A stretch of DNA of 25,779 nt from Candidatus Eiseniibacteriota bacterium (GCA_043810925.1 JBDRNT010000121.1:1-25779), one strand, 5' to 3'. Positions 9,018 to 25,668 are shown, numbered from the stretch's first letter. Notes: a model not told the origin generated them from the letters alone. Program-made: numbers and translations.

Positions 9018-9096
9018 TTGTCCACCTCCGTCGACTTGACACTCATCATGAAAAGCATCCAATCAGGCATAAACACACTCATCCCTATTGTGCAGT

Positions 9097-9909
9097 TTAC
9101 CACCCGCCACCTGCCCCACCTCCACCCGCAGAACCGCCACCAAAGCCTCCGAAGCCGCCCCCGAAGCCACCCGACGAGCCGCCTGATCCCCCGATCCAGA
9201 AACCACCGTACCGGCCCCCGCGGCCTGCGCGCCCGGCTAAGATGCGAAGCAGCATGAAGAACCCGATCGGGAAGAAGAGAAAGAGGAGCCGCATCAAGGG
9301 CGCGGCCTGTGACGGCTCTCTCGGCGCCAGCAGATACTGGCCGGGAACAGAGTCGTTAAAGGCAAAACTCTGGCCGCTTTCGGCAAGTATGCGCTCGGCA
9401 AGCATCTTGGTGGCAGTTACCAGGGCCTGGTCATACTGTCCTGACTGGAACCCGGGCCTGAGTACCTGCCGGTAGATCATGCTGGCATCGGCATCGGGGA
9501 TTGGCCCCTCGAGCCCATAGCCTGTCTTGATCCACATGCTCCGATCCTCTACGGCAACGAGAATGAGCACGCCATTGTCCTTACCCCTCTCCCCTATCCC
9601 CCACGCCATGAAGAGCCCGACGGAATAATCATGTATGTCGATCCCGCCGGTCGTCTTTATGATTGCAACTGCTATCTCGGCTCCCGTCTTCGCCTTTACC
9701 TCTCCGGCGATGCCACCGATCAGGGTCTCGGCCTGGTGTGATAACAGGCCGGCATAATCACTCACATAACCGATAGGCCTCGGATAGCCTGATTGTGCTG
9801 ACACCGTTCCGATCCAAACGAGCAAGATCAGGACGACGTTCAGCGCAATCCCACATCGCGGTCTTCGCAGCACATCTCTAATATCCGGAATCATGCATAT
9901 CCCCGGCAT
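9097..9909 (-). CDS. TPM-domain (YgcG/MOLO-1-like) membrane protein with Gly-rich tail
   Basis: 'GYVSDYAGLL', 'WGIG..GKDNGVLILVA..DR...I.TGYGLEG.IPD', and a C-terminal 'GGFGGFGGGS.GGGGAGGGW'. Exact start uncertain. Confidence 0.92.
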   Translation of the reverse strand: MPGICMIPDIRDVLRRPRCGIALNVVLILLVWIGTVSAQSGYPRPIGYVSDYAGLLSHQAETLIGGIAGEVKAKTGAEIAVAIIKTTGGIDIHDYSVGLFMAWGIGERGKDNGVLILVAVEDRSMWIKTGYGLEGPIPDADASMIYRQVLRPGFQSGQYDQALVTATKMLAERILAESGQSFAFNDSVPGQYLLAPREPSQAAPLMRLLFLFFPIGFFMLLRILAGRAGRGGRYGGFWIGGSGGSSGGFGGGFGGFGGGSAGGGGAGGGW

Positions 9910-9923
9910 ATGTATCTGCCTGC

Positions 9924-10694
9924 CTACAGTTTATCCACCCTGGCGGCGAGCTCTTCGACTCTCGTGACATAGTCTCCGAGAACTCCATGCGCTTCCTTGC
10001 CGCCTATCTTCTCATCCCCTGCCTTGTCCTTGAGAATTGCGACAAAAGGCTCGGTATCGACGCCGAAGACCTCACCTACCGATCTTACAACATCAAGCTT
10101 CGGGCGCGGTACCTCCACCCCCTTAAGCCTCAGCATCGCTCTGAAGACGGGAATCAGTGAGGTGAGCGAAGTGTGAAGCACTGACTCTGCTCCCTTCTTG
10201 GCCAGACCGACCTCGAGATAAGCCTGGCGCGTCCTCAAGACGGCGGACTTAAGCTGGGATTCGCATTCAAGCCGCAGGTGGGCCGGGACAACATCAATCG
10301 ATGAAAAGTGATCCTCACCCATCAAGAGCACCTGGTCCGCCTTGATCTCTGCGAACTCTATTGCGAAGACGTCAAGCGAGGTCGCGATGTAGTCGGCCGT
10401 AAGAAGAAGGGGCGGGACTATTTTCCTCTTTGCACCCCACTTAACGACTTCCAGCAGACGTGTGAGCACGCTTTGGCTGAGATCGGCTGCAACGATAACC
10501 AGATTGACATTGGACTTGCCGCGGATGAAGTCCGGACCCGTGGCACTGCCATAGGCGGAGATCGATTTCACCCCCGGGCCGAGCGCCGAGATTACTTTGT
10601 GGCAATAAGCCTCTACATCCGACCGTACCGACTCATGAAGTCTGTCCAGGTTCTGAAGGATCGTCATCTGGTTCCTCGCTTGACTTGAAATCAT
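9924..10694 (-). CDS. Nucleotidyltransferase-fold protein (pol-beta superfamily-like), probably lacking the catalytic DxD
   Basis: 'SISAYGSA.G.DF....SNVNLVIV' and 'S.DVFAIEF.EI'. It lies upstream of TPM and lemA. The start may be ATG 10667 (GAGG SD). Confidence 0.75.
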   Translation of the reverse strand: MISSQARNQMTILQNLDRLHESVRSDVEAYCHKVISALGPGVKSISAYGSATGPDFIRGKSNVNLVIVAADLSQSVLTRLLEVVKWGAKRKIVPPLLLTADYIATSLDVFAIEFAEIKADQVLLMGEDHFSSIDVVPAHLRLECESQLKSAVLRTRQAYLEVGLAKKGAESVLHTSLTSLIPVFRAMLRLKGVEVPRPKLDVVRSVGEVFGVDTEPFVAILKDKAGDEKIGGKEAHGVLGDYVTRVEELAARVDKL

Positions 10695-10726
10695 GGATTG
10701 CGTGAAGTCTCGTCATGTCGATGGTG

Positions 10727-10756
10727 AGTTTAATGACCCGCACGCTGGCAAGTCAA
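10727..10756 (-). promoter_or_regulatory. sigma70-type promoter of the NTase-TPM-lemA unit
   Basis: TTGACT (10756-10751), 18 nt, TAAACT (10732-10727). Confidence 0.5.
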
Positions 10757-10815
10757 CACAAACAGGGGAAATCCTTCATTGCCGCTCCCCGAGGCAGACG
10801 AGATGAGGCCGGCAG

Positions 10816-12297
10816 CTAAACCGACTTACTGAGATCGAGTCTGCGGATGAACTCATCCATGACACGCCGGTATAGCTCATCGCCCAGAATCTTGTCTTCA
10901 ACGCCGGAATCGATACTCGGATTGTCGTTGATCTCAATTACGACTACGCCTTTGGACGTGTCCTTCAGGTCGACCCCGTAGAAGCCATCTCCAATGAGAT
11001 TCGCCGCCTGCACGGCAATATCCACAACCGCCTTCGGTGCGTCTTCAATGCGCCACGTCTTATGGGCGCCCTCGCTGTATTCACCGGATGGCCCATGCTT
11101 CATGATCTGCCAGTGACGGCGCGACATGAAGTATTGGCAAGCGAAAAGCGGCTGCCGGTTCAAGACGCCTATTCTCCAGTCGAATTCAGTATACATATAC
11201 TCCTGTGCCAGAATCACATCGGAATCTGAGAACAACTCATCGGCGATCTTCTTGAGCTCCTCCTGCGTGGCGACCTTGTGTACCCCTCTTGAGAACGAGC
11301 TGTCCGGGATCTTCAAGACAACCGGGTAGGGGATCTCGGATTCCAGCGACTTGACATCCCCGATCTCGTCTTTCTTGAGTATCTCGGTCTTAGGGATGGG
11401 AATCTTGTGTGCCGCCAGCAGCTCCGCCAGGTAGATCTTATTGGTGCACTTCATTATTGAATCAGGATCGTCGATCACCACTATCCCCTCGTTCTCCGCT
11501 CTTCGGGAGAAGCGATATGTATAGTGTCCCACATCGGTGGTCTCGCGGATGAACAGCGCGTCGTACTCGCTAAGTTTCGAGAAGTCCTTCCTGGTTATGA
11601 GCTCAACCTCGACCCCGAGCTTCTTGCCGGCGTTTACGAACTTCTTGAGGGCCCGGGCATCCGAGGGAGGCAACTTCTCGTCGGGGTCATGCAGGATTGC
11701 CAGGTCGTACCGGCCGAAGCTCTTGGCCCTGGGTCTCCGCCACCGTCTGGTTGAGTAGGCATTCAGTGCCCGTATGAAGAACTTCTCATCTTGCTTGCTG
11801 ATAGCGTGTATGTACCCCGGCTTTATCGCCGATATCTGCCATTTGCCGTTGAGCTTGAAATCCACTTTGAGGATCGGACACGGGAACAAATCGAAAACCT
11901 GGCGGGCGAAATCCTGGAAATCCTTGTCTGCGCATTGACCGAAGTAGATATCTATCGATATGGATGAGTCCGAAGGCATGTCCTTCTTGGCCTTGATGCT
12001 ACGCTGGATTATCTCATGCAAATCCTCGATGCTCAGCCCATACAGAGACTTGCTCTGAAGGTCCGTGATCGTCCGCACGGAGGGCAGCACCCTGTGGCTT
12101 CTGGCCTCGGCCAGTAGCGAGCAGTAGTGCCCCAGCCTGAGATAGCGATAGCTCCTGCAGAGGTTGATGACCCGGACGTCTCTTAGTTTGAAATACTCCT
12201 GCCGGCTCACATAATCCTTCGCCAACACGACGACCGCATCTGGGACGCGGGCTTTCCAATCACCCGCTTGTTCGACAACGACTATTTGCGCAGCCAT
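10816..12297 (-). CDS. RimK-family ATP-grasp ligase with N-terminal RLAN domain
   Basis: RLAN 'VINLCRSYRYL..GHYCSLLAEAR.H.V.PSV.TI' and ATP-grasp 'YDALFIRETT', 'CTNKIYLAE', 'VLKIPDSSFSRGV', 'QEYMYTEFDWRIGVL', 'YGVDLK......VIEINDNP'. The start is probably ATG 12297. Confidence 0.92.
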   Translation of the reverse strand: MAAQIVVVEQAGDWKARVPDAVVVLAKDYVSRQEYFKLRDVRVINLCRSYRYLRLGHYCSLLAEARSHRVLPSVRTITDLQSKSLYGLSIEDLHEIIQRSIKAKKDMPSDSSISIDIYFGQCADKDFQDFARQVFDLFPCPILKVDFKLNGKWQISAIKPGYIHAISKQDEKFFIRALNAYSTRRWRRPRAKSFGRYDLAILHDPDEKLPPSDARALKKFVNAGKKLGVEVELITRKDFSKLSEYDALFIRETTDVGHYTYRFSRRAENEGIVVIDDPDSIMKCTNKIYLAELLAAHKIPIPKTEILKKDEIGDVKSLESEIPYPVVLKIPDSSFSRGVHKVATQEELKKIADELFSDSDVILAQEYMYTEFDWRIGVLNRQPLFACQYFMSRRHWQIMKHGPSGEYSEGAHKTWRIEDAPKAVVDIAVQAANLIGDGFYGVDLKDTSKGVVVIEINDNPSIDSGVEDKILGDELYRRVMDEFIRRLDLSKSV

Positions 12298-12366
12298 CTC
12301 AACCCTCAAGCTCCGATAATATAATGAGATCCGTACAAGCGCCAGGCCATAGATCCCGGGTTCGGC

Positions 12367-13476
12367 TCACTGCACATGAGCCCCCTCTTTTCCTCTTAGA
12401 ATTATAACCGCTTTCTGCCCGGCTTTGCCATACCTGGACATGCGCTCGAAATCTTTCTTGAGAATGGGCATGTTGATGCTATCAGCTTCGGTTTTGCCCT
12501 CATCAGAATCGACGAATGAATCATGGACGTAAATGTACCTCTCGTCGAAACCGGTCACCACCACCCAGTGAGGGGTCTTCTCGTGGTAGATGCGGTAGGA
12601 ACTGATCAGGACGATCGGGATGCTGCCCGCCGAGAACTGTCGCTGTATGTCCTCGACAGTCAGGACACCGTAATGGACCGTTATCGGCAGTCCCTGTATC
12701 TCCTCCATCTGGTCTTCCTGAACCAGACGGATGATTTCTTTCTTCTTCGGATCACGAACCGAATCTACAAAAAACGCCGCCGGGCCGTTTACGTAGATCT
12801 CCACGCCGAAGCCGCGTTTGAAGGCCGACAGCCCGAGACCGAAAGGGCCACACCCCCCGTGACCCGACATCATGAAGATGCTCGTAGACTCGCGCCAGAT
12901 TCTAATCTCCAGCTTGCGGTCGATCTCGAGACCGGGTTCAAGCGCTTTCATGGCCATTATCAAGGCCGCCGGGCCGCAGGTGAATTCCAGCGTCTGCCTG
13001 TAAAAAGGTATTCGTACCATCTCGGGTGGAAGGTGAGGCACCAGGTACTTCTCGAAGCGGAGGGCTTCCATGTGGTCTTTGTAGTAGTCGGGCACCACAT
13101 CGAAAGACTTGTAACCGTGCCGGCGGTACAGGTTGACGGCAGCCTCGTTGTCCTTTCGCACTTCAAGCCGCATGATTACACATTCGTTCTCGACGGCATC
13201 CTTCTCCGCCGCATCGAGGAGATTGAGGCCAAGCCCACGCCCCCGAAACGCAGCGTCCACGACAATGGAATAGAGCCGCGCCAGGGAAGTACCTCTGTTG
13301 TATAAGACCAGCACGTAGCCGCGGATTATGCCTTTCTCCTCATCGACGAGCGTGGTCGCGTTTCCCCTGGCGAGAAGATGTCGCATACTCCGGCGCGACA
13401 GCCTGTCGCTCTCGAAGGAATTGTTCTCAAGAAGTGTCAGCGCATGCAGGTCCGTACTTTGCGCCTTCCGTATCAC
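12367..13476 (-). CDS. GNAT (RimI-like) acetyltransferase fused to a peptidase C39-like (papain-fold) domain
   Basis: N-terminal 'ARLYSIVVD...RGRGLG', 'LEVRKDN..A..LY...GY', and C-terminal 'Y.QT.EFTCGPA', 'GHGGCGPFGL', 'PHWVVVTG', 'VHD'. GTG start. Confidence 0.9.
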   Translation of the reverse strand: MIRKAQSTDLHALTLLENNSFESDRLSRRSMRHLLARGNATTLVDEEKGIIRGYVLVLYNRGTSLARLYSIVVDAAFRGRGLGLNLLDAAEKDAVENECVIMRLEVRKDNEAAVNLYRRHGYKSFDVVPDYYKDHMEALRFEKYLVPHLPPEMVRIPFYRQTLEFTCGPAALIMAMKALEPGLEIDRKLEIRIWRESTSIFMMSGHGGCGPFGLGLSAFKRGFGVEIYVNGPAAFFVDSVRDPKKKEIIRLVQEDQMEEIQGLPITVHYGVLTVEDIQRQFSAGSIPIVLISSYRIYHEKTPHWVVVTGFDERYIYVHDSFVDSDEGKTEADSINMPILKKDFERMSRYGKAGQKAVIILRGKEGAHVQ

Positions 13477-13555
13477 TGCTCGCTCACCTGCCTCGAACTC
13501 GGGACCGCCCCTTTCGACACGCCGGACATGACTCTATCAGAGTCTCCACTTCGTC

Positions 13556-14548
13556 TCAATCCCCCCATCGCGACCGGAATCCCCTGACATCGACGTGGAC
13601 AAACGGCCCGTGGAACCCGGTTTTCTTGTACCTTCCAAGACCACCCACAAACAATTGGTACCAGGGCTTGCCGTACATCTCATCAACGATGTCATAGAGG
13701 ATGGCGGCATCCCGGTAGTCGTGTTTGCCGTCCTTGTTAAGGTCATCCATTATGCAATCTCGCGGTTCTTCATCGATGAAGATGTCAGCTGCGCCTCCCC
13801 AAACGTGCCGGCTGTATTTCACGTTCCCAATCATCTTGTTGTAATACGGAGTCCGGTAGCCACTCATCACCTCAAAAGTGCTGGCGGGATAACCCATCTC
13901 GTTCACTTTCTCCAGGACAAGTTCAAGCTTGAGAAGCAATTTCTCATTGAGTACAAGGTACTTGGGATAATCACTGTCCTGCTTGCATATGAACTGTTTC
14001 AGCCTGAAGTGGGAACCGACAAGTGTTTCTTCGTTTGCAGGTGTAACCTCTATGAATCCCCGGGGCGGCTTGTATATGGGAAGATCCTTGAGGGGAATCG
14101 TGGGATACCTTCCGATCCGGTAGCCGTTCAGATACTCACCCTTGAGATTCTCATACGGCACCATGACAAAAACGTTAAGAGTCACCGTGTCCGATGTTGA
14201 CGATCGCCCAAGCACAAGGTGGTATGAGCCGGTCTTCCCCGGAGCCACCCATTGCCACTTGTTGGGAGCCAGACGAACGGTCTCTCCGGCCGAGGCGATG
14301 AATTCGTATTCGCCGCTATCAGCCAAAGGCAAGGCCTCAACCGGCAGGGTCTCACCCGGCAGTACGAACACACCGATCACGCGATATGGCGATGTCACGT
14401 CTTTGACCTTGACCTGAAAGCCCGCCCTCTCAGGCGCGAACGCATGGGATGGTGAAACCTCCGGACCAGCCAGGAGTATCGCCAATACCGCAATCAGCAG
14501 GCCCCCCGTGACTCGTGTGCCGGCAATTCCCGAGATCAGCCGATTCAT
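13556..14548 (-). CDS. Exported peptidase M15A family (Zn D-Ala-D-Ala carboxypeptidase/endopeptidase-like)
   Basis: Signal peptide, then 'SGYRTPYYN', 'SRHVWGGAADI' and 'HGPFVHVDVRG' (H-x6-D ... HxD). Confidence 0.85.
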   Translation of the reverse strand: MNRLISGIAGTRVTGGLLIAVLAILLAGPEVSPSHAFAPERAGFQVKVKDVTSPYRVIGVFVLPGETLPVEALPLADSGEYEFIASAGETVRLAPNKWQWVAPGKTGSYHLVLGRSSTSDTVTLNVFVMVPYENLKGEYLNGYRIGRYPTIPLKDLPIYKPPRGFIEVTPANEETLVGSHFRLKQFICKQDSDYPKYLVLNEKLLLKLELVLEKVNEMGYPASTFEVMSGYRTPYYNKMIGNVKYSRHVWGGAADIFIDEEPRDCIMDDLNKDGKHDYRDAAILYDIVDEMYGKPWYQLFVGGLGRYKKTGFHGPFVHVDVRGFRSRWGD

Positions 14549-14574
14549 TGCTTCCCCTCTTCACAATCATAGGA

Positions 14575-16317
14575 CTACATGGGAGGCTTCTCGGCAAGAG
14601 CTTCCGCCAGTAGCTTATCCCGCCCGTAGATATCTTCACGAAAGTGGACTGTGCCGAAAGCGTCCACCCAGGCGGTCCAGTAAAGCACGTGAACAGGGAT
14701 CGACTCTGGAAGCCGGACCGTCTGTTCGACGCGCCGGCCGATCACAGCAAGCACTGCATCGCGATTCCACTTCGGATCATCGCGCAACACGTATTCCGCG
14801 AGTTCGATCGGCTTCTCCACCCTTATGCAGCCGGAACTGAAGGCCCGGGCGGTCTTCGCAAAGAGATCCTGGGACGGAGTATCATGGAGATACACGTCAA
14901 ACTTGTTCGGAAACATGAACTTCACACGACCCAGAGCATTGACGGGACCAGGTTCCTGACGGAACCTGTACTTGAAATCCTTGGCGGTCACCTTGGGCCA
15001 GTCCACGCTGTTCGGATCGATCTCTTTGGTGTCGCCTCCCCACCCCTGAAATATCTTGAATCCCTTCTCGGTCAGGTAGCCGGGATTCTTGCGCACCTGA
15101 GGCAGAATGTCCTTAACAGCAAGGCTGGGAGGAACGTGCCAATACGGATTCAGGACGATATAGGTCATCCTGCCGCTGAAGACCGGAGTCCGCCGGTAGT
15201 CCCTGCCCACAATGACCCGCATTGTCAACACTTCCTTCTCAGCCTCGACGACATCCAATTCAAAATTGGCAATGTTGACAATTATGTAGCGCGGGCCCAG
15301 ATCCTGGGGAAGCCAGCGCCATCGCTCCATGTTTATTTCAATCCGGCGTACGCGGTCCTCGGCACTTCCGTTGAGAGCGGAGAGAGTCGCTGGCCCCACT
15401 ATCCCATCGACATCCAGACCGTGCCGTTTCTGGAAGTGCTTCACAGCTGCTTCAAGGCCGTCATCGAACTCTTCCCGGTCAACGGCCTCACCCTCGCGCA
15501 GGTCGCCCGTAACTCGGAGCCGCTCGCGGAGGGATGTTATCCGGCTTCCGGAATCACCCTTCTCGAGTTTTGGCCCGGCAGGCACAACAGGCCAGCCGCC
15601 TTTCTGAGCGATGTCGCGATAGGCCGCCAGGGCTTCTCTAAGTCTGACGTAACCGGCCTGCGAAGGGCGCAGATTCTCAAGCGTTTCCTGAACCGCACTG
15701 CTGGATATCGCCGTCTCAAGCACCTCGGCCATATCCACGTCCCTTCGATTCGCGAACCACTCCGGGTCGAATGTCTCAGGGTTGACACGCCCCGCCACAA
15801 GATGGGAACCGTATATCAGAAACGCGTCGGTCAGCAGGAGCTCAAGATCGACCAGTCCTCTAGGGTTGGCCCGGCCTTGGTTGGACGACAGATCACCAAA
15901 GCGCTCGAGCATAGTCCCGATCCTGGCGAGGTCGTAATCACTCGACCTGAGACCCTCTGCATCGGCTCCCCGCAATGCCCTGAGCAGTTCACGTGACGCC
16001 GGCGATATCCCGGATTCATCGATCCAGATGGGCAGGTATGAACGTTTCTCGTAGAAACGGGGCAGTGCAATCGAGGCATACAAGTCCCGCCCGCAGACTA
16101 TGAACTCAGGGGCAGTGCACCCGGTTTCGATGCGGTTCCGCAGCAGCTCCCGGACTTGTCCATAGAGATCTCTGTTATTCAGGCGCTCAGCTCTTGCTTC
16201 TGGCGGACCGCACAGCAATAGAGCAACCATGAGCAAACACAGCGCAGCTGTCGTGGTGGCGCAGACTGCTGCCCACCTCTTTGGGATTACATAAAACAGG
16301 ACTGAGTTCCTTTCCAT
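14575..16317 (-). CDS. L,D-transpeptidase (YcbB/LdtD type, with scaffold and peptidoglycan-binding domains)
   Basis: 'AVKHFQKRHGLDVDGIVGPATL' (PG-binding), 'NMERWRWLP', 'IVNIANF', 'NPYWHVP', 'NALGRVKFMFPN...YLHDTP' and 'SSGCIRV'. Start is ATG 16317 or GTG 16326. Confidence 0.93.
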   Translation of the reverse strand: MERNSVLFYVIPKRWAAVCATTTAALCLLMVALLLCGPPEARAERLNNRDLYGQVRELLRNRIETGCTAPEFIVCGRDLYASIALPRFYEKRSYLPIWIDESGISPASRELLRALRGADAEGLRSSDYDLARIGTMLERFGDLSSNQGRANPRGLVDLELLLTDAFLIYGSHLVAGRVNPETFDPEWFANRRDVDMAEVLETAISSSAVQETLENLRPSQAGYVRLREALAAYRDIAQKGGWPVVPAGPKLEKGDSGSRITSLRERLRVTGDLREGEAVDREEFDDGLEAAVKHFQKRHGLDVDGIVGPATLSALNGSAEDRVRRIEINMERWRWLPQDLGPRYIIVNIANFELDVVEAEKEVLTMRVIVGRDYRRTPVFSGRMTYIVLNPYWHVPPSLAVKDILPQVRKNPGYLTEKGFKIFQGWGGDTKEIDPNSVDWPKVTAKDFKYRFRQEPGPVNALGRVKFMFPNKFDVYLHDTPSQDLFAKTARAFSSGCIRVEKPIELAEYVLRDDPKWNRDAVLAVIGRRVEQTVRLPESIPVHVLYWTAWVDAFGTVHFREDIYGRDKLLAEALAEKPPM

Positions 16318-16420
16318 CGAAACCACCTTCCGTCTGTGAGCCGGACCTCTTCCCTGGGGCCACCTTCTTACTCTGAAGCAGGCAACCGGCTTATTTCAAT
16401 TATGAGATCCATCGATCGCG

Positions 16421-16450
16421 AGTCTAATAAGCCAACGCCCGGCAAGTCAA
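16421..16450 (-). promoter_or_regulatory. sigma70-type promoter of the L,D-transpeptidase unit
   Basis: TTGACT (16450-16445), 18 nt, TAGACT (16426-16421). Confidence 0.5.
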
Positions 16451-16469
16451 CCTAAACAGAAATGTGGAC

Positions 16470-17207
16470 CTACTCAAGCTGCCACGCCTTGTTGAAGAAG
16501 GCGCGGTGAATGAAGAACGAGGATACGAGTACGGCTATCGTACTGCTTGCCGCAAGCATGTACATCACTATGAGCTGTATCTTCGCGGCCTCAACGGGAG
16601 GTGCGCCCGCAAGCAGCATACCGGTCATCGCACCCGGCAGGTGTACAAGGCCTATGACCTTCATCGTGTTCATAAGAGGTAGGAGCGAGGCTCGCACCGA
16701 TCTCCTGGCGAGCGGCTCGATGGCCCTCCGCGGGGACGCCCCGAGACTCAAGGCGGTTTCGATCTCACCTCGTTTGTCCCTGACCTCGGATGAGATCCTG
16801 TCGAGGCCAAGCGATACGGCATTCATAGAGTTTCCGATCATCATTCCGCCAAGCGGGATAAGATACGTCGGTGACGTATCGATGATCCTCAAGGCCAGCA
16901 TCAGCCCGACCGTACAGGTGACCCCGGCGAGGATCGAGACGAAAGCTATGGTAAAGGCACCCTGGACGGACTTCGCCCTCCCTCTTGCCGTGAAGGCGGC
17001 CACGACCACCATCGTGAGAAGGAGAAGTACCTGGTACTGGAGCCGATCAAGGTCGAATACGAACTGGATGACATAGCCCACCGCCATGAGCTGTACGAAG
17101 GTTCTCAAGGTACCGATCAAGAGTTCCTTGCCCACGCCCAGCCGTCGTATTTCGATAATGGCTATGGCAATCCCGATAAGGGCAGTGGAGGCGATCAACC
17201 GGCTCAT
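16470..17207 (-). CDS. fetB: ABC transporter permease, FetB/YbbM (UPF0014) family
   Basis: 'R.FVQLMAVGYV', 'YLIPLGGMMIGNSMNA', 'IETALSLGASP', 'GLVHLPGAMTGMLLAG..P.EA...Q'. ATGA overlap with the upstream ATPase gene. Confidence 0.88.
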   Translation of the reverse strand: MSRLIASTALIGIAIAIIEIRRLGVGKELLIGTLRTFVQLMAVGYVIQFVFDLDRLQYQVLLLLTMVVVAAFTARGRAKSVQGAFTIAFVSILAGVTCTVGLMLALRIIDTSPTYLIPLGGMMIGNSMNAVSLGLDRISSEVRDKRGEIETALSLGASPRRAIEPLARRSVRASLLPLMNTMKVIGLVHLPGAMTGMLLAGAPPVEAAKIQLIVMYMLAASSTIAVLVSSFFIHRAFFNKAWQLE

Positions 17208-17914
17208 TTGAGTTCACCTCTTATGAATTTCAAGGTCCGTGCATCCTGCGGATGGTCGAGAAAATCCGACATCGGTCCCTCCTCGACCTTTCTGCCGCTT
17301 ATAAGCAGAATGGCGGCGTCTCCCATCCGCTTCGCCTGCTCGATATAGTGAGTCACGAATATGCAGGTGAGGCCAAGGGTCTTCACCAGACGCTTGACCA
17401 GCTCTTCGATCTGAAGACAGGCCGTTGGATCGAGCCCGGAGGTGGGCTCATCGAGAAGCAACACCTTGGGACCGACCGATATCGCCCGGCCGATTGAGAC
17501 CTTCTGTGCTTCTCCTCCCGAGAGGCTCCTGGCATCCTGCTCTAGCATGCCGGCATCAAGACCGACAAGTGACATCACTTCTCCAATGTCGACGTGGATG
17601 TCGTGCAGGGCCGGACCGAAACGCAGGTTGGCTTCCACCGTACCTTCAAAGAGCTCCGGTCTCTGAAAGACCATACCGACCTCCCGCCTGAGGGCGCACA
17701 CATCCCACGATGAAATCGGCTTGTCCTTGTAGAGAACCCGTCCTGACGCCGGATCATCGAGGCGGTTAAGAAGTCTCAGAACGGAGGTCTTGCCCGAACC
17801 GCTCGGACCGAGGATCGTAGATGTCCTGCCATCCGCAACGCACCAGTCCAGCGACTCAAGCACGGGCTTACCCGACTTGATCACTTGCACCTTTTCCAAT
17901 CTGAAAACATCCAT
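17204..17914 (-). CDS. ABC transporter ATP-binding subunit (FetA/PstB-like)
   Basis: Walker A 'GPSGSGKT', Q-loop 'MVFQRP', signature 'LSGGEAQK', Walker B 'LLLDEPTSGLD' and 'VTH'. Confidence 0.92.
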   Translation of the reverse strand: MDVFRLEKVQVIKSGKPVLESLDWCVADGRTSTILGPSGSGKTSVLRLLNRLDDPASGRVLYKDKPISSWDVCALRREVGMVFQRPELFEGTVEANLRFGPALHDIHVDIGEVMSLVGLDAGMLEQDARSLSGGEAQKVSIGRAISVGPKVLLLDEPTSGLDPTACLQIEELVKRLVKTLGLTCIFVTHYIEQAKRMGDAAILLISGRKVEEGPMSDFLDHPQDARTLKFIRGELK

Positions 17915-17948
17915 GGGTCGCCACGGTTTCCTGTATGTCTACCCTCCC

Positions 17949-17977
17949 ATTCTATGCCCAAAGTCTACCCATGTCCA
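17949..17977 (-). promoter_or_regulatory. sigma70-type promoter of the ABC pair
   Basis: TGGACA (17977-17972), 17 nt, TAGAAT (17954-17949). Confidence 0.55.
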
Positions 17978-18109
17978 CACTTCCTCACTTGATGTCGATC
18001 CTCAGCACAGGACGCTACTGATCTGGAAGTGTGCCGTATGGTGCGAGGTCCGAGGCACCGGCTCCAAGCCACGGTCGTTGATTTACCTGGCCGGGAAGCC
18101 AGAACAGGC

Positions 18110-18138
18110 TTGAATAAGCGGCTCGTCTATGGTATAAT
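18110..18138 (+). promoter_or_regulatory. Near-consensus sigma70 promoter with extended -10 and no adjacent CDS
   Basis: TTGAAT (18110-18115), 17 nt, TATAAT (18133-18138), preceded by TGn. Confidence 0.65.
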
Positions 18139-18144
18139 ATGGAC

Positions 18145-18398
18145 TGGAGTGGTGAGTTTTACTCCTTGACCGTATCGCGAACCAACAGGGTGTTGATGAG
18201 GGGACCACAATCTCGGTTTACACTGATTCCCGGACCCGATGGCGTTGGCGCATGTGTACGTCAACACCGGCATTGCGGGGCGAAGAAAAGGATTGTGCCG
18301 ATTAGATAAAACAAGCGGGAGATCAGCCATTGAAAGGACTGGTTAGACCGATAGTCCGAGTAAAGATCCCGGTCCTGCCTTTGTGGCGGGCCGGGATC
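18145..18398 (+). ncRNA. Putative structured non-coding transcript (unclassified)
   Basis: Follows the strong promoter, contains several nested complementary segments, and ends in a GC-rich hairpin at 18365-18398. No SD-led ORF. Confidence 0.3.
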
Positions 18399-18429
18399 CC
18401 GCTTATGTAGCGTCGGGGTCCCGCAATAA

Positions 18430-18582
18430 TGTCGTCGCGAGCTCCCGAAGGGAGCGTGGCGATCTGTAGAGATTGCCACGTCACTACGTTCCTCGCAACG
18501 ACACGTCCTGTGTCGGATTGCCGCGGCTCCTTCGTCGCCTTGCAATGACGTGGGGATCGAACCTTCGTCGTCCCGCGATGGC
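18430..18582. repeat. Cluster of 3-4 short palindromic repeats (CGTC/'GTCATTGCGAG...GCAATC'-type REP-like)
   Basis: (+)18430-18465 TGTCGTCGCGAGCTCCCGAAGGGAGCGTGGCGATCT; (-)18468-18503 TGTCGTTGCGAGGAACGTAGTGACGTGGCAATCTCT; (-)18515-18550 CGTCATTGCAAGGCGACGAAGGAGCCGCGGCAATCC; a degenerate fourth copy at ~18555-18582. Confidence 0.75.
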
Positions 18583-18738
18583 ACGGAGGGCGAATCTCTC
18601 TGTGTCACTTCAACAACAACGTGGTACAGATCGCACTCAGAATACTCTCGGACGGATTCATCCACAGCATCTTAACATCTTATCTCACAAAGTAATAGGA
18701 GCTCCATGAACCGTAATTGGTGGGTGCCGGCGAGTAGA

Positions 18739-18754
18739 GGGCATGGATTATGCT
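18739..18754 (+). promoter_or_regulatory. Putative sigma54 (-24/-12) promoter
   Basis: GGGCATGGATTATGCT versus consensus TGGCACG-N4-TTGCW. Exact GG-N10-GC spacing (18740-41 / 18752-53), about 40 nt upstream of the small ORF. Confidence 0.45.
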
Positions 18755-18793
18755 GTTGCTAGCCCATGAACGCCCCGGGGAAGGAGGTATACA

Positions 18794-18919
18794 ATGCTTA
18801 AGCTACTGGCAACACTCGCGATTGTCGGCCTGCTGTTTAGCGCCGGTTGCTGCTGTGATCCCGATGACTGCTGTGATGACTGTCATGACGATTGCTGCTG
18901 TTGTGACTGCTGCGGCTAG
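18794..18919 (+). CDS. 41-aa Cys/Asp-rich micro-lipoprotein MLKLLATLAIVGLLFSAG-CCCDPDDCCDDCHDDCCCCDCCG
   Basis: Perfect SD AAGGAGGT (18781-18788) 5 nt before the ATG, a Lys + hydrophobic + SAG|C lipoprotein-type signal, and a TAG stop. It is below the ORF-track length cutoff. Confidence 0.8.
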   Translation: MLKLLATLAIVGLLFSAGCCCDPDDCCDDCHDDCCCCDCCG

Positions 18920-18974
18920 TGACCAGGCAAGGCAATTGGAACTGAAAGCCATACATGGAGGGTATGCAATTATC

Positions 18975-20225
18975 CTATGAACCGCTGCCCGTGGATGAAG
19001 CAGCCGCCACCTGCCGGTACCGCAGACCTTTGAGCACGACGTCCCGGGCTGCGAAGTAGGCTTCCCTCAGATCTTCTCCGATGGGCTCGCCCCTGGGGTA
19101 GTCTATGGTGAGGGGGTTCACATATGAGCCGTACCTCTTGACCCTGAAATCGAGGTGGGGCCCTGTCGACAAGCCGGTGGAGCCGACATAGCCGACAACC
19201 TGCCCCTGCTTGACTCTGGTTCCCTTTCTTACGCCCTTGCCGTAACGGGACAGGTGACCATAGCAGGATGAATAAACATGGTTGTGCCTTATCTCAACGA
19301 AATTACCCATTCCACCGTTCCACCCGGCTGATACCACGCGGCCGTCACCGATCGAGACAACCGGGGTCCCCGTGGGCGCCGCATAATCTACTCCATGGTG
19401 TGCGCGGTATCTCTTGAGGATAGGGTGAAATCGCCGGTTTGTGAAGTAGCTTGAGATACGCCTGTAATTAAGCGGTGACTTCAGGAAGACACGCTTGACC
19501 GAGTTACCCTCGTAGTCATAATGCTGCATCCTGCCGTCCTCGTCGGGATATCCAAATGCGAGGTGTTCATCGTCCTCGTTGAGGTACCCGGCGCCTATTA
19601 CATCGCCGATCCCGATCTTCCGGTCTTCGCAGTAAAGCTCCTCGAATATCATTATGAAGGTGTCCCCCACCCTCGGATCGGTGACAAAGTCGATCTCCCA
19701 TCCCAGCACATCTGCAAGTTTGAGGGCGATCTGCGGATCTTCCCCGATCCCGGTGAAGGCTTCCCACAGTGAGGACTCAAGCACACCCTCGATACGTCTT
19801 GTGACCACAACGATCGGAATCTCATCCTTGGCCACGGTATACCCCGTTGAGTCCCGGTGGACCATGAAGAGCTGTGTCATTCCCTTCTTGTAGCAGAGCG
19901 ATGCAATGAATCCATCCGAACCGAGGTCGGCGGTATACGAGTCGCCGGGCTTGCATGATCTCAGGTTGACTTCCTTGCCGAGAACATCGAGAACATCGAC
20001 CACGTCAGAAGCTTCAAGCCCGCTCGAGACAAGTGAGGTATAAAGCGATTCACCGGATGATAGTGTGTCCGCGATGGCCGCCGGAGCTTGAGTGACTTCG
20101 GGAGTCTCTACGGAGCTTTCACTTCCGGAATCCGATGTCCCGCATCCCTGGACTGAAAACGAGGATATGACAAGTGCGGTGGTGACGCACCATGCGGCTA
20201 CTGTTGTTGTAAGGCGTTCCGTCAT
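18975..20225 (-). CDS. M23 family peptidoglycan DD-metalloendopeptidase (MepM/Csd3-like)
   Basis: N-terminal signal/lipobox-like 'SVQGC', then 'WEIDF', 'FLKSPL...RISS.F...RFHPIL....HHGVDYAAP.GTPV', 'YGHLS' and 'GYVGSTGLSTGPHLDF'. Confidence 0.93.
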   Translation of the reverse strand: MTERLTTTVAAWCVTTALVISSFSVQGCGTSDSGSESSVETPEVTQAPAAIADTLSSGESLYTSLVSSGLEASDVVDVLDVLGKEVNLRSCKPGDSYTADLGSDGFIASLCYKKGMTQLFMVHRDSTGYTVAKDEIPIVVVTRRIEGVLESSLWEAFTGIGEDPQIALKLADVLGWEIDFVTDPRVGDTFIMIFEELYCEDRKIGIGDVIGAGYLNEDDEHLAFGYPDEDGRMQHYDYEGNSVKRVFLKSPLNYRRISSYFTNRRFHPILKRYRAHHGVDYAAPTGTPVVSIGDGRVVSAGWNGGMGNFVEIRHNHVYSSCYGHLSRYGKGVRKGTRVKQGQVVGYVGSTGLSTGPHLDFRVKRYGSYVNPLTIDYPRGEPIGEDLREAYFAARDVVLKGLRYRQVAAASSTGSGS

Positions 20226-20411: not shown

Positions 20412-23357
20412 TTACTGCAGCAGAACCATCTTACGTGTCGCGGTTCCGGCTTCAGTCGTAACCACATAGTAATACACACCGCTGGCGACCCTTCGAGACC
20501 GCCGGTCGGTTCCATCCCACGGGATCTGGTGCGCTCCAGGAGAAGCAACACCCTCCCACAGGCGCGTTACCTGCCTGCCGTCGACAGAGACAACATCGAG
20601 CCTGAGCCATGTGGGTCTGGCCGCTTCAAATGCAATGCTCGTTGTCGCCTTGAACGGATTAGGGACATTCTGCAGAAGTCTGAGCTCGCCGGATCCATAA
20701 TCACGGCTGGAGATTTCCTCATCCCGGTAGAGGCCATAGGTCCCGAAACGGACGGCATGGGCAATCACGGTCCCCTTGCCCTCATCGACGTATGACTCGA
20801 GAGGAATCACCTGCCCATCTTCGACTCTTGCAATACATAGATGACGGGGATCACACACGCTCTGATCGTAGGCCATCGATATCGTGACCGCACCGTCGAG
20901 CTCATGCGCGGGCGGCGAGACCTTATATGCGGATATGAGCCCCTCGGTCGAAACGGGATCATCCATTATCACCACGTACATATCACCCGACACCGTGCCC
21001 GCCGGCAAAGCCACTTCAAGACATCCGTCAACGCTCCGCGCAACGCCGCCCGAACGGGCGAGAACCAGAGACGCGCCGAACGCACGGGCCTCTTGAGCCC
21101 AGTTGGAATTCAGGTCCCTCCCACAGGCTTCGATCCTGAGCAGACCGCCGGACTGGAGAGTGTAGTCGCACCTGAACACGCTTGTTCCGGGAACGGCCTC
21201 GGGTACGAGATCCTCATCGGGTTCAGGTACGTCCAGGCCGACCCTCACAAAGAAACTGCTATCTACTATCGCTTCAGACAGAGTGATATAGATATCGAGA
21301 TAACTCGTCAAGTACGGGTTCTGAAGAACTGAGATCGCCAGACCCGGAGGTACGAGATCCTGCGTGTACGCACTGTCACTGGCTATCGGGGAGTAATTGA
21401 TCATCTCATCAAACGCGGTGATGCAGTAGTAATAAGTCGTCTCGTTAATGAGCCCCGTGTGCGTGAAGCTGTCGGGCCAGGCGGGGATAGCGTCAAACAC
21501 ACCATTATTACCGTTCTCAACGGGCTGGCCGCCTGCAGGTGATGACAGCGGCCCGTCGGTCGAATAGGAGATCAAGACCCCTGTGAGATCGAGATCACTC
21601 GGACCGGTCCAGCCCAGAGTGACCGACCGGTCGCTTCCGGTAGCCGTGAAGGCTGAAACAGCGCCGGGCGGTACCGAATCTTCCGCGGTGGCCGAGGCAG
21701 TGACGGCTACCGAGTAGTTGGGAACGATGTCGCCTGCAAACGCCGAGTAGTAGTAGGTCACATCATTTTCAAGACGCGTATGCACAAAGCCGTCTGAGCT
21801 TGAGGGTGAATTGTGGAACTTCCCGCCGGCACCGTTTTCAACCGGTGTCCCGGCCGACGGATTCGCCGGATAGTCCGTCTCAGAGTAGACTATCAGCGTG
21901 TGCTCGAAATCCTCATCACCCGGATTCACCCAGCTTAAGGTCACCGTTGTATCACTTCCAACGGCACCGAAGGTTGAAGGAGCTGCGGGGGCGGCGGCGT
22001 CCCACACAACCCGCGCTCTTATACCGAGATCACGACCCAGAACCTGGTACCAGGTGTTGCCGTTGGGACTCTTGTAGGACTTCCCGGCGGCCTGCGTGCT
22101 CTGGTCGTCGGCCGGCAGGGGTTCTGCAAAAGTGGCATATGTGATCTTGGCCATCACGTATATGTCGTCTCCCGCGCCGATGCCCACGGGCGTGGTCAGT
22201 TCTACGGAGTGATAGCCCGGGTGCTCGAAAGACACGTTGAGCCGGTTTCCGAGAAGGTTCGTAAGCGAACCTCCGGTGAAATCGTCATAGACGTAGACAT
22301 CCACGTCCGTTATTTCATCGACCGCGAAGAACTCGACCCGTTCCACCGTACCGCTGCTGGCGGGTATGTACTTGCAGAAGCCCCACGCTGTGTTGCTGCC
22401 GGGATAGCCCTCCGCCATCGTGTAGCCGGCCTCGTCGTAGTGAAGCAGATCGCCGCTCGGATCATAGTCCTGCCACTCGTAGAGGAAAGAGGCCTCCTGC
22501 CCTATTTTCGCAGAACCATAGGCAATCGTGAAGTAGCCACCCTCGGTCCCATAGCCGCACGGGCCTCCCCATGACTTCCCCCAGCTGTTCTTGACGATCC
22601 AGGCACCCTGGCCCCCTGGATGGGTCAAGTCGTCATCCCACCCCACTATCACCACTGCATGATTGACCACATCGCCGCCCGGGTGGTAGAGCGTATAGGA
22701 ACCGTCATAGTTCGCAAACTCGTTGGCCCAGGCGTTGCCGTCACCCACATATATCGCGGTAAAAATCGGGCCGTGATCGTATATATATGACTTGAGCACC
22801 TCCTCATCGGGTGTCACGCTGTACGAGATCACCCGCCAGTCAAGAAGCGTCTTGATATGGTCGCAGTAATCCCTGCAGTTGAACTGTACGTAGGAAGCAT
22901 AGGGATCACACGATTCGAGCACGGTGCCTTGCTTGGAGAGGAAATTGGCAACTCTCCAGTAATTACCTCCCTGACAGGCGGAACCGTACCAATAACACTC
23001 CTTGACATTATTCTCGGAAAAGTCGTAGAGGCTTTCGCCGTCAATCAGGAGCTCGGATTCGAAATCGGCAAGGGCCGCAAAGGCAAAACATGTTCCGCAT
23101 GACCCCTGGTCCTGAACCAGGGTCACAACGCCCAGATCGCGCCAGTCGTACCTTGTCGGAAGAGGCAGAGTCGTTCTGGGCATCCTCCCGGCAGCAACGT
23201 CGGGATGGTCGAACTCCGGCGGGACATAGCCTCGCCCGTAGACGGGGGCGTCTGAAACGGACACCTGAGCGCGCGAACCCGATGCGGCACCAAACAAGAG
23301 ACCTGCAGCGAGTGCCAGGCCGATTGCAATGTGTATGTATCTACTTGATATATCCAT
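20412..23357 (-). CDS. Secreted papain-family (C1A) cysteine protease with lectin-like domain, two FN3-like repeats and C-terminal FlgD/T9SS-like domain
   Basis: Signal peptide, 'YDWR', 'QDQGSCGTCFAF', 'NHAVVIVGWDD', 'WIVKNSWG', and C-terminal 'QNVPNPF...WDG.D.....VASGVYYY.......TRKMVLLQ'. AAGGAG SD. Confidence 0.92.
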   Translation of the reverse strand: MDISSRYIHIAIGLALAAGLLFGAASGSRAQVSVSDAPVYGRGYVPPEFDHPDVAAGRMPRTTLPLPTRYDWRDLGVVTLVQDQGSCGTCFAFAALADFESELLIDGESLYDFSENNVKECYWYGSACQGGNYWRVANFLSKQGTVLESCDPYASYVQFNCRDYCDHIKTLLDWRVISYSVTPDEEVLKSYIYDHGPIFTAIYVGDGNAWANEFANYDGSYTLYHPGGDVVNHAVVIVGWDDDLTHPGGQGAWIVKNSWGKSWGGPCGYGTEGGYFTIAYGSAKIGQEASFLYEWQDYDPSGDLLHYDEAGYTMAEGYPGSNTAWGFCKYIPASSGTVERVEFFAVDEITDVDVYVYDDFTGGSLTNLLGNRLNVSFEHPGYHSVELTTPVGIGAGDDIYVMAKITYATFAEPLPADDQSTQAAGKSYKSPNGNTWYQVLGRDLGIRARVVWDAAAPAAPSTFGAVGSDTTVTLSWVNPGDEDFEHTLIVYSETDYPANPSAGTPVENGAGGKFHNSPSSSDGFVHTRLENDVTYYYSAFAGDIVPNYSVAVTASATAEDSVPPGAVSAFTATGSDRSVTLGWTGPSDLDLTGVLISYSTDGPLSSPAGGQPVENGNNGVFDAIPAWPDSFTHTGLINETTYYYCITAFDEMINYSPIASDSAYTQDLVPPGLAISVLQNPYLTSYLDIYITLSEAIVDSSFFVRVGLDVPEPDEDLVPEAVPGTSVFRCDYTLQSGGLLRIEACGRDLNSNWAQEARAFGASLVLARSGGVARSVDGCLEVALPAGTVSGDMYVVIMDDPVSTEGLISAYKVSPPAHELDGAVTISMAYDQSVCDPRHLCIARVEDGQVIPLESYVDEGKGTVIAHAVRFGTYGLYRDEEISSRDYGSGELRLLQNVPNPFKATTSIAFEAARPTWLRLDVVSVDGRQVTRLWEGVASPGAHQIPWDGTDRRSRRVASGVYYYVVTTEAGTATRKMVLLQ

Positions 23358-23517: not shown

Positions 23518-25668
23518 TTACTCGATCAGCACCAGCTTGGCGGTGTGAACCTCGTTTGATGTCACAAGTCTCGCAAAATAGAGACCGGGAGAAAGCCTTG
23601 TGTCGGCACCCGCGCCCGGTTCCCATGTGGCCGAGTGCGGACCTCCGTCTGAGTAGCCCTCTTTGAGGATGGCGACTCGTCTGCCTGTAACATCAAAGAC
23701 CTCAAGCCGTATCCAGTCGGGCCGAGCAAGCTCAAACCGTATCGCGAAGCCGTCACGTGCCGGATTCGGCTCAGGTATTTCAAGGAGCGTTTTGGGCGCA
23801 CTTTCCGGAGCTGACTCACCGGCCTTTGCATGGTCCGTCGGACGCGTGCGCGGGAGCATTCCAAGGTCATCCACCGAGCAACCCCGGTCCACAGGTGAAT
23901 CGAAATGCTCCCTGATATCCCCGGTATGTGCGGTAATGCAGTAGTAGGTCCAGCATGAGTCCGATCCCGTGGAGTCGCAGTGTGTCGCGGCGGTGAAGTC
24001 ATAGCAGCAGTTGCCTGTGGCAGCCACCGTTGCCAGCAATTCCCACACAGGGCCTTCCTCACCATGCTCGTAGGGACCGCCTGTGACGTAGTTCGCGGCC
24101 AGAAGCGTCGGGAGTGTCTCTATCCGTTTTCTCCAGACCTTGTAGCGCACTACCTCCGGAACGGAACCCTCGCTGTCATAGAGGCTTCTCCTCCACTCCA
24201 GATCAACGTAACCTCCGTTATCGGCCGGCACATCGATGACGCTCACAATCGCAGGTGTCTCTATGATCACGCCGCAGGAGGCATCATCGGTCACGCGCAG
24301 ACGTATGCCAAGGTCGCCACCAGCCCATGCGGAGTACGACGCACCTGTGGCACTTATGTGGCAGTAACCTGCGGCCGGGGGACCGGCATTGTCGAAGGCA
24401 AGCGGATACGTATAGGAGTTGTCCGTGATTTTGACCACTGCATATATGTCCTCCCCGGAAGCGACCTCAAGCGGCTCGGAGAGTTCGACCGAGTGGTAAC
24501 CCGGAAGCGAGAAGGAACTGTTGAGTCTGCTCGCGAGCAGGTTCGAAGGAGAGACTCCGCTAAAGTCGTCGTAGATGAAGACATCTATATCCGTCGTTGT
24601 ATCAAGCGTCCAGAACTCCACCCTCTCTACAAGGATATCCTCGGTCGCGATGAACTTGCAGAGACCCCATGCGGTGGTAAGACCGTAGCCCACGGCTGAG
24701 GTGTAGCCGCCATCATCATGATAAAGCAGCGAGCCGTCGGGATCGTAGTTCTGCCAGTCATATAGGAATGAAGAGTAGGATCCGATTTTGGCGGAACCGT
24801 ATGCGATGTAGAAATAGCCGCCTTCGGCCCCGTAACCGCAGGTGCCGCCCCAGGAGGTTCCCCAGCTGTTCTTGACGATCCATGCCCCCGAGCCGCCAGG
24901 ATGGGTCTGGCTGTCGTCCCAGCCGACTATGAGGACTGCATGGTTGGTCAGTTCCGACCCGGTATGGTAGAGCACGTAGGAGCCGTCGTAGGCGTTCATT
25001 TCTGAGTGCCATGCATCATAGAACCCCGCGTACATCGAAGTGTAGAGCGGGCCGTATGTCTGGAGATAGGACTTGATCACATTCGTCGCGGGTACATCAC
25101 TGGACGATATAACCTGCCAGTCAAGCAGCGTCTTCGCATAGGCGCACGCACCGTTGCATGCGACGTCGCTTGCGACGTATGGGTCGCAGGCTTCAAGGAC
25201 GGTGCCGTTGGCTGCAAGAAAGCTGGCAACCCGCCAGTAGTTACCTCCGCCGCAACTTGATTCGTGCCACTCACACTCTTTGGCGTTGTTCTCCGAGAAG
25301 TTGAATGTGCTTCCACCGTCAACGAGCATCTTCGATTCGAAGTTACCGATCGAAGCAAACGCGTAGCACGAACCGCACGTTCCCTGGTTCTTAACCGGCG
25401 TTACCTTGCCCGTAACTCGCCAGTCAAAGGTTGAAAGCAGAGGAGCCGGATGCTTGGCCATCGGCGCGCTTATATGCGATAGGTCCCCGGGCGGAGGGAC
25501 AAAGCCGTTACTGTAGAACCCATCAGGCACGGTCTCGATTTTTTCAGGTGCGACCCGGGGAAGAGGATCACCCGCATACACGGGAATCGAGAAGCCCACT
25601 CCGATAGCTACGATGATCAACAGTATTAGCCCGATGGGGCAGTGGTTTCCATGTTTGCATTTCCGCAT
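23518..25668 (-). CDS. Second secreted papain-family (C1A) cysteine protease with lectin-like domain and C-terminal T9SS-like domain
   Basis: Signal peptide, 'FDWR..GKVTPVKNQGTCGSCYAF', 'NHAVLIVGWDD', 'WIVKNSWG', and C-terminal 'PNP....IRF....VFDVTGRRVA...PGLYFARL.......KLVLIE'. GAGGAG SD. Confidence 0.92.
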   Translation of the reverse strand: MRKCKHGNHCPIGLILLIIVAIGVGFSIPVYAGDPLPRVAPEKIETVPDGFYSNGFVPPPGDLSHISAPMAKHPAPLLSTFDWRVTGKVTPVKNQGTCGSCYAFASIGNFESKMLVDGGSTFNFSENNAKECEWHESSCGGGNYWRVASFLAANGTVLEACDPYVASDVACNGACAYAKTLLDWQVISSSDVPATNVIKSYLQTYGPLYTSMYAGFYDAWHSEMNAYDGSYVLYHTGSELTNHAVLIVGWDDSQTHPGGSGAWIVKNSWGTSWGGTCGYGAEGGYFYIAYGSAKIGSYSSFLYDWQNYDPDGSLLYHDDGGYTSAVGYGLTTAWGLCKFIATEDILVERVEFWTLDTTTDIDVFIYDDFSGVSPSNLLASRLNSSFSLPGYHSVELSEPLEVASGEDIYAVVKITDNSYTYPLAFDNAGPPAAGYCHISATGASYSAWAGGDLGIRLRVTDDASCGVIIETPAIVSVIDVPADNGGYVDLEWRRSLYDSEGSVPEVVRYKVWRKRIETLPTLLAANYVTGGPYEHGEEGPVWELLATVAATGNCCYDFTAATHCDSTGSDSCWTYYCITAHTGDIREHFDSPVDRGCSVDDLGMLPRTRPTDHAKAGESAPESAPKTLLEIPEPNPARDGFAIRFELARPDWIRLEVFDVTGRRVAILKEGYSDGGPHSATWEPGAGADTRLSPGLYFARLVTSNEVHTAKLVLIE

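Follow-up and report, generated by a model that had tools for sequence, protein, structure and literature searches.

A predicted 41-residue lipoprotein-type peptide rich in cysteine and aspartate from Candidatus Eiseniibacteriota, a candidate metal binder of the cell envelope

A small gene at 18794-18919 (+) of the window, the 25,779-nt stretch of DNA from Candidatus Eiseniibacteriota bacterium analyzed here, encodes a peptide in which a lipoprotein-type signal is followed by a 23-residue tail dominated by cysteine and aspartate. The ORF is probably a real gene, a view that rests mainly on its intrinsic signals together with the retention of its frame and composition in one close relative. Our preferred reading, to which we assign a probability of about 0.4, is that this genuine small gene produces an exported, lipidated peptide that binds several metal ions via thiolates and carboxylates, in the manner of metallothioneins or phytochelatins. 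Export, lipidation, the reduced state of the thiols, metal binding and localization are all steps that we infer.

Results

Sequence features of the peptide gene

The gene comprises 41 codons, with its ATG at 18794 and a TAG stop codon at 18917-18919 (+) that is immediately followed by a TGA. A strong Shine-Dalgarno sequence, AAGGAGGT, is located at 18781-18788 (+) and separated from the ATG by a 5-nt spacer, which is an ideal distance. Translation gives the full product MLKLLATLAIVGLLFSAGCCCDPDDCCDDCHDDCCCCDCCG. Residues 1-18 (MLKLLATLAIVGLLFSAG; 18794-18847, +) form a predicted signal peptide with Lys3 in the n-region, a hydrophobic core of about 13 residues (about residues 4-15) and the lipobox F-S-A-G preceding Cys19. 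The predicted mature peptide, residues 19-41 (CCCDPDDCCDDCHDDCCCCDCCG; 18848-18916, +), has 12 Cys, 8 Asp, 1 Pro, 1 His and 1 Gly in its 23 residues, i.e., 52% Cys and 35% Asp with no aromatic or aliphatic residue, and its predicted net charge is about -8. Three xDDC units with a period of 4 (PDDC-CDDC-HDDC; 18860-18895, +) precede a poly-Cys tail, and the spacings CC, CxC and CxxC occur in addition to the (xDDC)3 periodicity. The peptide therefore has the composition by which metallothioneins are recognized, being small, Cys-rich, devoid of aromatics and provided with CC/CxC/CxxC motifs. An AlphaFold2 model without metal showed a helix at residues 4-16 with low confidence and an unstructured tail without secondary structure (pLDDT 56.8). 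A peptide that depends on metal for its folding would be expected to look like this, although the model speaks neither for nor against metal-thiolate clusters.

Synonymous codons are mixed in the tail, with 7 TGC and 5 TGT for Cys and 4 GAC and 4 GAT for Asp. A DNA repeat finder detected imperfect 17-nt copies across the tract of xDDC units, and the composition of the tract leaves the alternative frames open as well. A preliminary description of this DNA had proposed the same coordinates, the arrangement AAGGAGGT-N5-ATG, the translation MLKLLATLAIVGLLFSAG|CCCDPDDCCDDCHDDCCCCDCCG, the 12 Cys, 8 Asp and His of the 23-residue mature part, and the mixing of Cys and Asp codons. Re-reading of the sequence, together with a count of the composition, reproduced every one of these points exactly.

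The window peptide and its ortholog in a related locus, L001 (see below), both have a charged n-region, a hydrophobic h-region and a lipobox Cys within residues 15-35, as expected of lipoproteins. Both also match a relaxed lipobox rule (after PROSITE PS51257), with the Cys at position 19 in each case. Position -3 of the lipobox is Ser in the window and Gly in L001 instead of the usual Leu, so processing by signal peptidase II (SPII) is not certain; judging from this residue, signal peptidase I might cleave instead, or the signal might stay in place as an anchor.

Comparison with chance expectation

The density of Cys in the tail was compared with the rest of the window and with simulated DNA. 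Cys accounts for 1.06% of the 7153 codons of the 16 large genes in the window. Outside the ORF, six-frame translation of the window gave at most 7 Cys in any stop-free stretch of 23 residues, and the maxima in 30 windows simulated with a first-order Markov model were 4-6 Cys per 23 residues. The Cys-rich tail is far beyond chance.

A similar comparison was made for the translation and export signals. Among the 1084 start codons of ORFs with 30 aa or more in the window, nine satisfy the relaxed lipobox rule, and just one of these nine, the start of the peptide gene, is preceded by a Shine-Dalgarno match. Simulation of 20 windows gave 71 starts matching the lipobox rule, of which 1 had a Shine-Dalgarno match. 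The proposal of the preliminary description that this is a gene for a lipoprotein-type exported peptide is supported, in that the ORF looks like a real gene of this kind; the Shine-Dalgarno sequence and the lipobox-rule signal are both kept in L001.

The related locus and its ortholog

The related locus was found by using the adjacent M23 protein as a query against genome contigs, which left one locus from 107 pattern matches. This locus, L001, lies on a public MAG contig, of which 13.2 kb was covered, represents the only related genome found and encodes an M23 protein 90% identical to that of the window. Its gene order is the same, namely two proteases, the M23 gene, a small ORF, the ATPase and the permease. 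The syntenic small ORF (L001 7307-7435, -) encodes a 42-aa ortholog, MRKLLVTLTIVGLLFGAGCCLDCDDRCDDCRDDCCCGCCDCC, whose mature part, CCLDCDDRCDDCRDDCCCGCCDCC, also contains 12 Cys and 8 Asp. The Shine-Dalgarno sequence AAGGAGGT is identical in L001, which also retains the ATG, the TAGTGA at the end of the gene, the reading frame, the hydrophobic core, the lipobox and Cys19. In L001, the n-region carries Arg2 and Lys3, and the signal ends in FGAG|C19, compared with FSAG|C19 in the window. From the window to L001, Cys21 is replaced by Leu, Pro23 by Cys, Cys26 by Arg and His31 by Arg, so that three Cys positions differ despite the equal Cys count. The three period-4 units are common to both peptides and read CDDR-CDDC-RDDC in L001. 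By eye, the C-terminus appears rearranged, L001 having an additional TGC-GGC and the window an additional GGC.

The frame, whose conservation in relatives the preliminary description had put forward as a check on the gene, is intact in this one relative. The alignment of the two ORFs contains a single indel, of 3 nt. By contrast, the non-coding flanks have 7 indels, 5 of which are of 1 or 5 nt, and this would count in favour of coding. However, a TGC-rich tract would favour multiples of three even without selection. In L001, a 1-nt indel disrupts an alternative-frame ORF whose start in the window is at 18750.

The two peptide ORFs differ by 6 synonymous and 10 non-synonymous changes, giving a dN/dS of 0.39 (Nei-Gojobori), which is not significantly below 1 (6 of 16 changes synonymous versus 21% expected, by a rough binomial estimate). 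For five neighboring genes, dN/dS is 0.07-0.14 and dS is 0.50-0.71 between the same two genomes. Nucleotide identity to L001 is 82% for the ORF, 81% for the adjacent non-coding DNA upstream, 86% for that downstream and 75% for the intergenic region overall. Sequence conservation proves little here, because there is a single close relative and the ORF is no more identical than its flanks. We therefore regard the comparative support for the peptide gene, as read from the alignment, as modest.

Searches for homologs

Searches with the peptide gave no Pfam family at E<=0.001, no NCBIfam family at E<=1 (DUF2282 likewise absent) and no PDB sequence at E<=10; similarity to the known metallothionein families (SmtA/BmtA etc.) was thus absent from Pfam, NCBIfam and PDB alike. 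A word-indexed search of 5.8 billion clusters returned no candidate of near length for either the window or the L001 peptide; among longer proteins, it returned two candidates for the window peptide, none at E<=10. A tblastn search of plasmids with the low-complexity filter on gave no match to the peptide. The sole phmmer match among 1.84 billion representatives (E=2e-5) was a repetitive 287-aa protein aligned on its repeat, which we judged spurious and rejected. By sequence, the peptide belongs to no described family. Little weight can be given to these blank searches, because HMMER and BLAST penalize a biased composition and ORFs of 41 aa are seldom called. In the literature searched, no natural metallothionein that is lipidated or bears a lipobox was described.

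An exact look-up in about 15 billion predicted proteins found neither the window nor the L001 peptide. The absence of both copies suggests that very short, low-complexity exported peptides may escape standard annotation and filtered searches. The ESM Atlas contains the 41-aa peptide of the window letter for letter, and therefore the ORF has also been called by another pipeline; no look-alike besides this entry was found there.

Genomic neighborhood

The nearest gene lies 55 nt downstream in convergent orientation (18975-20225, -) and encodes an M23 (MepM/ShyC-like) peptidoglycan endopeptidase (PF01551 at 1.6e-32), with the NCBIfam matches to ShyC and MepM falling under their cut-offs. Its N-terminus (20142-20225, -) resembles a lipoprotein signal, ending in ...SSFSVQG|C28 and followed by a linker rich in Ser, Asp and Glu. 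In view of this G|C lipobox, the nearest neighbor of the peptide is probably also a lipoprotein. Farther downstream, Pfam and NCBIfam identify two tandem papain-family (C1) proteases with lectin-like domains (20412-23357 and 23518-25668, both -). The two protease genes have a 300-nt stretch in common at 71% identity, and both are kept in L001. The protease at 23518-25668 has a T9SS type A sorting domain (26.9 bits against a cut-off of 23), which points to an FCB-type diderm as the host. A weak FlgD-Ig/PorU-like C-terminus was seen in the protease at 20412-23357.

Upstream, a gap of 879 nt (17915-18793) separates the peptide ATG from the start of an ABC ATPase gene (17204-17914, -; PF00005), which is followed by a UPF0014 permease gene (16470-17207, -; PF03649 at 8.4e-76). 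The preliminary description had taken these genes for a divergent FetAB-type pair associated with iron export. The divergent geometry holds, with the ATPase starting at 17914 on the minus strand, but both genes score below the equivalog cut-offs for FetA and FetB. The permease scores 184.6 bits against a cut-off of 410 for the NCBIfam equivalog FetB (TIGR00245), and the ATPase scores 130.6 bits against 292 for FetA (NF007601), behind its top match PstB. The permease is a member of UPF0014, and the transporter is FetAB-like at the family level only. Adjacency to these genes carries no weight, because the two genomes are collinear close relatives, and the suggested link to iron export is not supported.

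An 8-kb block of the window (8445-16326) is absent from the L001 locus, where the permease abuts the polysaccharide genes (window 4425-8432). The block includes genes for LemA, a TPM-domain protein, a 256-aa unknown protein, a RimK-like ATP-grasp protein with an RLAN domain (10816-12309), a GNAT domain fused to a C39-like DUF3335 (12367-13476), an M15-like peptidase and a YkuD L,D-transpeptidase. The ATP-grasp and C39-like genes are on the strand opposite to the peptide gene, 5.3-8 kb from it, and are likewise missing at the L001 locus. A 48-nt direct repeat, with copies 73% identical at 10718-10765 and 16412-16459, lies upstream of two minus-strand genes, those for the 256-aa unknown protein and the YkuD transpeptidase, and may be a shared regulatory site.

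Of the 19 large ORFs in the window, three (1705-2661, 9924-10694 and 18261-18665) had no Pfam match, and none carried a metal-sensor or RiPP-maturase domain. Domains of the MNIO (DUF692), DUF2063, radical-SAM, YcaO and lanthipeptide types were found in 0 of these 19 ORFs and in 0 of the 7 L001 ORFs scanned. The locus thus has neither the adjacent MNIO gene of bufferins, oxazolins and DAG-RiPPs nor the adjacent radical-SAM gene and precursor-model match of SCIFF peptides and ranthipeptides. No tRNA genes were found in the window.

Upstream region

A 35-nt block identical in both genomes (18655-18689, +) is located 105 nt upstream of the ATG and is the longest identical run in the alignment of the window with L001. 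Within it are the tandem octamers CATCTTAA/CATCTTAT, and the window has no second copy of the block. On this basis, we consider it a candidate promoter or operator of the peptide gene. Farther upstream, a promoter-like site with a TG extension, TTGAAT-17-TATAAT (18110-18138, +), is directed towards the peptide gene; it is a consensus match only and is largely kept in L001 (TTGAAT ... TACAAT). Downstream of this extended -10 site, a hairpin of 14 bp (18365-18398; L001 about 7668-7701, -) is kept in both genomes, with a folding energy of -33.7 kcal/mol and a z-score of -4.7 in the window and a z-score of -3.4 in L001. The hairpin has no U-tract and no Rfam match; it may mark the end of an sRNA or a processing site, or belong to a long 5' leader ahead of the peptide ORF.

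Relative to L001, the region between the ATPase and peptide genes contains two insertions, of 164 nt (18412-18575) and 102 nt (17986-18087). The 164-nt insertion, which has no plasmid match, contains an imperfect inverted repeat (18471-18483 and 18546-18558) and the motifs CTCGCAACGAC and TTGCAATGACG, and looks like a small repeat or MITE-like element. A 134-aa ORF on the minus strand (18261-18665) spans this insertion, which is missing in L001, has no Pfam or NCBIfam match and is probably not a gene.

Rfam gave nothing at gathering scores in the window; at E<=1, the sole match in 17800-19100 was isrG, with 12.8 bits against a cut-off of 100. Neither Pfam nor Rfam pointed to a metal-responsive regulator, a riboswitch or a recognizable operator near the peptide gene, and no intrinsic terminator was found on the plus strand after the ORF. 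We also considered a Cys-sensing leader peptide or attenuator and rejected it, because the next gene is convergent and no same-strand gene lies downstream to be regulated.

Discussion

Proposed function

In the mechanism that we propose, the 18-residue signal would direct the peptide to Sec for insertion, Cys19 would be lipidated, and signal peptidase II would remove the signal. The product would be a strongly acidic 23-residue peptide, with 11 further Cys and 8 Asp, tethered to the membrane on its extracytoplasmic side. The most likely role of the tail would then be to hold several metal ions of soft or borderline character (Zn, Cd, Cu(I), Fe(II) or similar) in clusters with its thiolates, assisted by the carboxylates. 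Such an action would be metallothionein- or phytochelatin-like, yet carried out at the envelope, to which the peptide would be attached on the extracytoplasmic side. The numbers of Cys and Asp are kept between the two copies while their positions drift, and therefore a cluster-forming or bulk-chemistry role fits better than a precise fold. Extracytoplasmic thiols may, however, be oxidized to disulfides, which would count against metal binding, as do the absence of similarity to metallothioneins and the absence of a recognizable metal-responsive regulator, riboswitch or operator in the vicinity.

Both copies have Asp at +4, +6 and +7 after the Cys predicted to bear the lipid, and these residues might route the peptide to the cell surface. 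Lipoproteins of Bacteroidota are directed to the surface by acidic residues that lie about +3 to +6 past the lipidated Cys (PMC5080379). By analogy, surface display is conceivable if the present lineage shares the Bacteroidota pathway. A more specific version of the proposal, in which a gene-encoded, lipid-anchored analog of metallothioneins or phytochelatins sits on the envelope of this uncultivated, FCB-type host, possibly at the surface, and captures or nucleates metal or metal-sulfide clusters outside the cytoplasm, is tentative and in our estimate rather doubtful.

Alternative explanations

If the ORF were a non-functional chance product, it would simply overlie a TGC/GAY-rich low-complexity tract behind an SD-like sequence. 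The lack of homologs in very large protein sets, an ORF identity to L001 no higher than that of the flanks and the openness of the other frames for reasons of composition would all agree with this. On the other hand, a strong Shine-Dalgarno sequence, an ATG, a positive n-region, a 13-residue hydrophobic core and a lipobox are jointly rare by chance, and all of them are kept in L001, where the alternative-frame ORF from 18750 is broken and the Cys and Asp numbers survive substitutions; we consider a chance ORF improbable. The main rival to metal binding is instead a structural lipoprotein resembling OmcA, in which intra- or intermolecular disulfides would stiffen or cross-link the outer membrane or envelope. 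This reading has in its favor that the best-known small Cys-rich lipoprotein is built in the same way, from a lipobox and a short Cys-dense mature part, that envelope enzymes are encoded nearby (the M23 endopeptidase, itself a predicted lipoprotein, the YkuD L,D-transpeptidase and the M15-like peptidase), and that thiols outside the cytoplasm are commonly oxidized. However, the peptide is without similarity to any family, the chlamydial one included (no Pfam match); 8 Asp in 23 residues and runs of CC, CCC and CCCC make a poor geometry for ordered disulfides; lipidation of Cys19 would leave an odd number of 11 Cys; and the block with the YkuD and M15 genes is missing at the L001 locus. A disulfide-based role is therefore unlikely in our judgment, though it is the competitor we take most seriously.

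The same composition that speaks for metal binding would also suit a thiol carrier or buffer that carries sulfane sulfur or polysulfide, scavenges oxidants or electrophiles, or seeds iron-sulfur or metal-sulfide particles at the envelope, and a Cys count that is kept while positions move points to bulk chemistry over a precise fold here too. Yet no sulfur-metabolism gene was seen when the 19 large ORFs in the window were scanned, and no precedent is known to us; we hold out little expectation of such a role. Least probable of all is the RiPP-like alternative raised in the preliminary description. In this case, the peptide could be a lipidated precursor of the DAG-RiPP or bufferin-like kind, and a maturase gene elsewhere in the genome would account for the conversion of its Cys. 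RiPP precursors that combine a Sec or lipoprotein signal with modified Cys are known, some of them copper-binding (PMC13056109, PMC11626156), and the window contains a RimK-like ATP-grasp protein and a GNAT/C39-like protein. But the DAG-RiPP and bufferin families are defined by an adjacent maturase, and none of the 19 large ORFs in the window or the 7 scanned in L001 has a maturase domain, leaving this alternative without support from either locus; the ATP-grasp and C39-like pair is distant, on the other strand and missing in L001. Moreover, bufferins are folded and have cores of 61-68 residues rather than 23-mers (PMC11626156), and the peptide has no DUF2282 or other NCBIfam match.

If our preferred reading holds and the peptide is both produced and metal-binding, the buffering of metals by thiolate clusters would reach beyond the cytoplasm to a lipid-anchored face of the envelope. 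Should the lipid-anchored reading be true, the peptide would be both the smallest metallothionein and the first lipidated one outside the cytoplasm, and it would found a family that protein databases have missed because such ORFs are rarely called.

Comparison with known systems

The known bacterial metallothioneins, such as SmtA/BmtA and MymT, are cytoplasmic and have no signal peptide. The peptide shares with them small size, abundant Cys, the CC/CxC/CxxC motifs, the lack of aromatics and the lack of a stable fold predicted without metal. It differs in being shorter (23 residues), in being richer in Cys (52%) and Asp (35%), and in having a lipoprotein signal, and it shows no sequence similarity to them. 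SmtA and the general definition of a metallothionein are also covered in PMC7558416. Csp1, a copper storage protein exported in folded form by the Tat pathway, is a four-helix bundle that assembles into tetramers and binds many Cu(I) ions via thiolates (PMC7558416). Csp1 and the peptide would both be exported and Cys-rich, in the latter case by prediction, but the peptide is a 23-residue Sec/lipoprotein-type product without similarity to Csp1. For DAG-RiPPs, lipidation of the +1 Cys has been shown (PMC13056109). Bufferins, oxazolins and DAG-RiPPs require an adjacent MNIO enzyme, which converts specific Cys (PMC11626156, PMC13056109). These products resemble the peptide in having a signal peptide, with a lipobox in some, followed by a Cys-bearing core, and their role is metal binding; their cores are longer and folded, however, and no MNIO gene is present at the locus of the peptide.

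OmcA is a small Cys-rich lipoprotein of the chlamydial outer-membrane complex that acts via disulfide cross-linking and is known from one phylum. Like the peptide, it is a small lipoprotein with dense cysteines, but it is several times longer, is not Asp-rich and shows no similarity to the peptide (no Pfam match).

Phytochelatins are synthesized enzymatically and contain gamma-Glu linkages, and synthetic (Glu-Cys)n-Gly peptides have been displayed on bacteria via lipoprotein anchors as an engineers' design for metal capture. In common with both, the peptide has a short chain in which an acidic residue alternates with Cys, and the window copy ends in a C-terminal Gly. Unlike phytochelatins, it is ribosomal, uses Asp and has runs of Cys. 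In the papers searched, no natural lipid-anchored peptide of the phytochelatin type was described. If our reading is true, the peptide would be the natural counterpart of the engineered, anchored Cys-rich peptides for metal capture, with a 23-residue scaffold that is accessible by synthesis.
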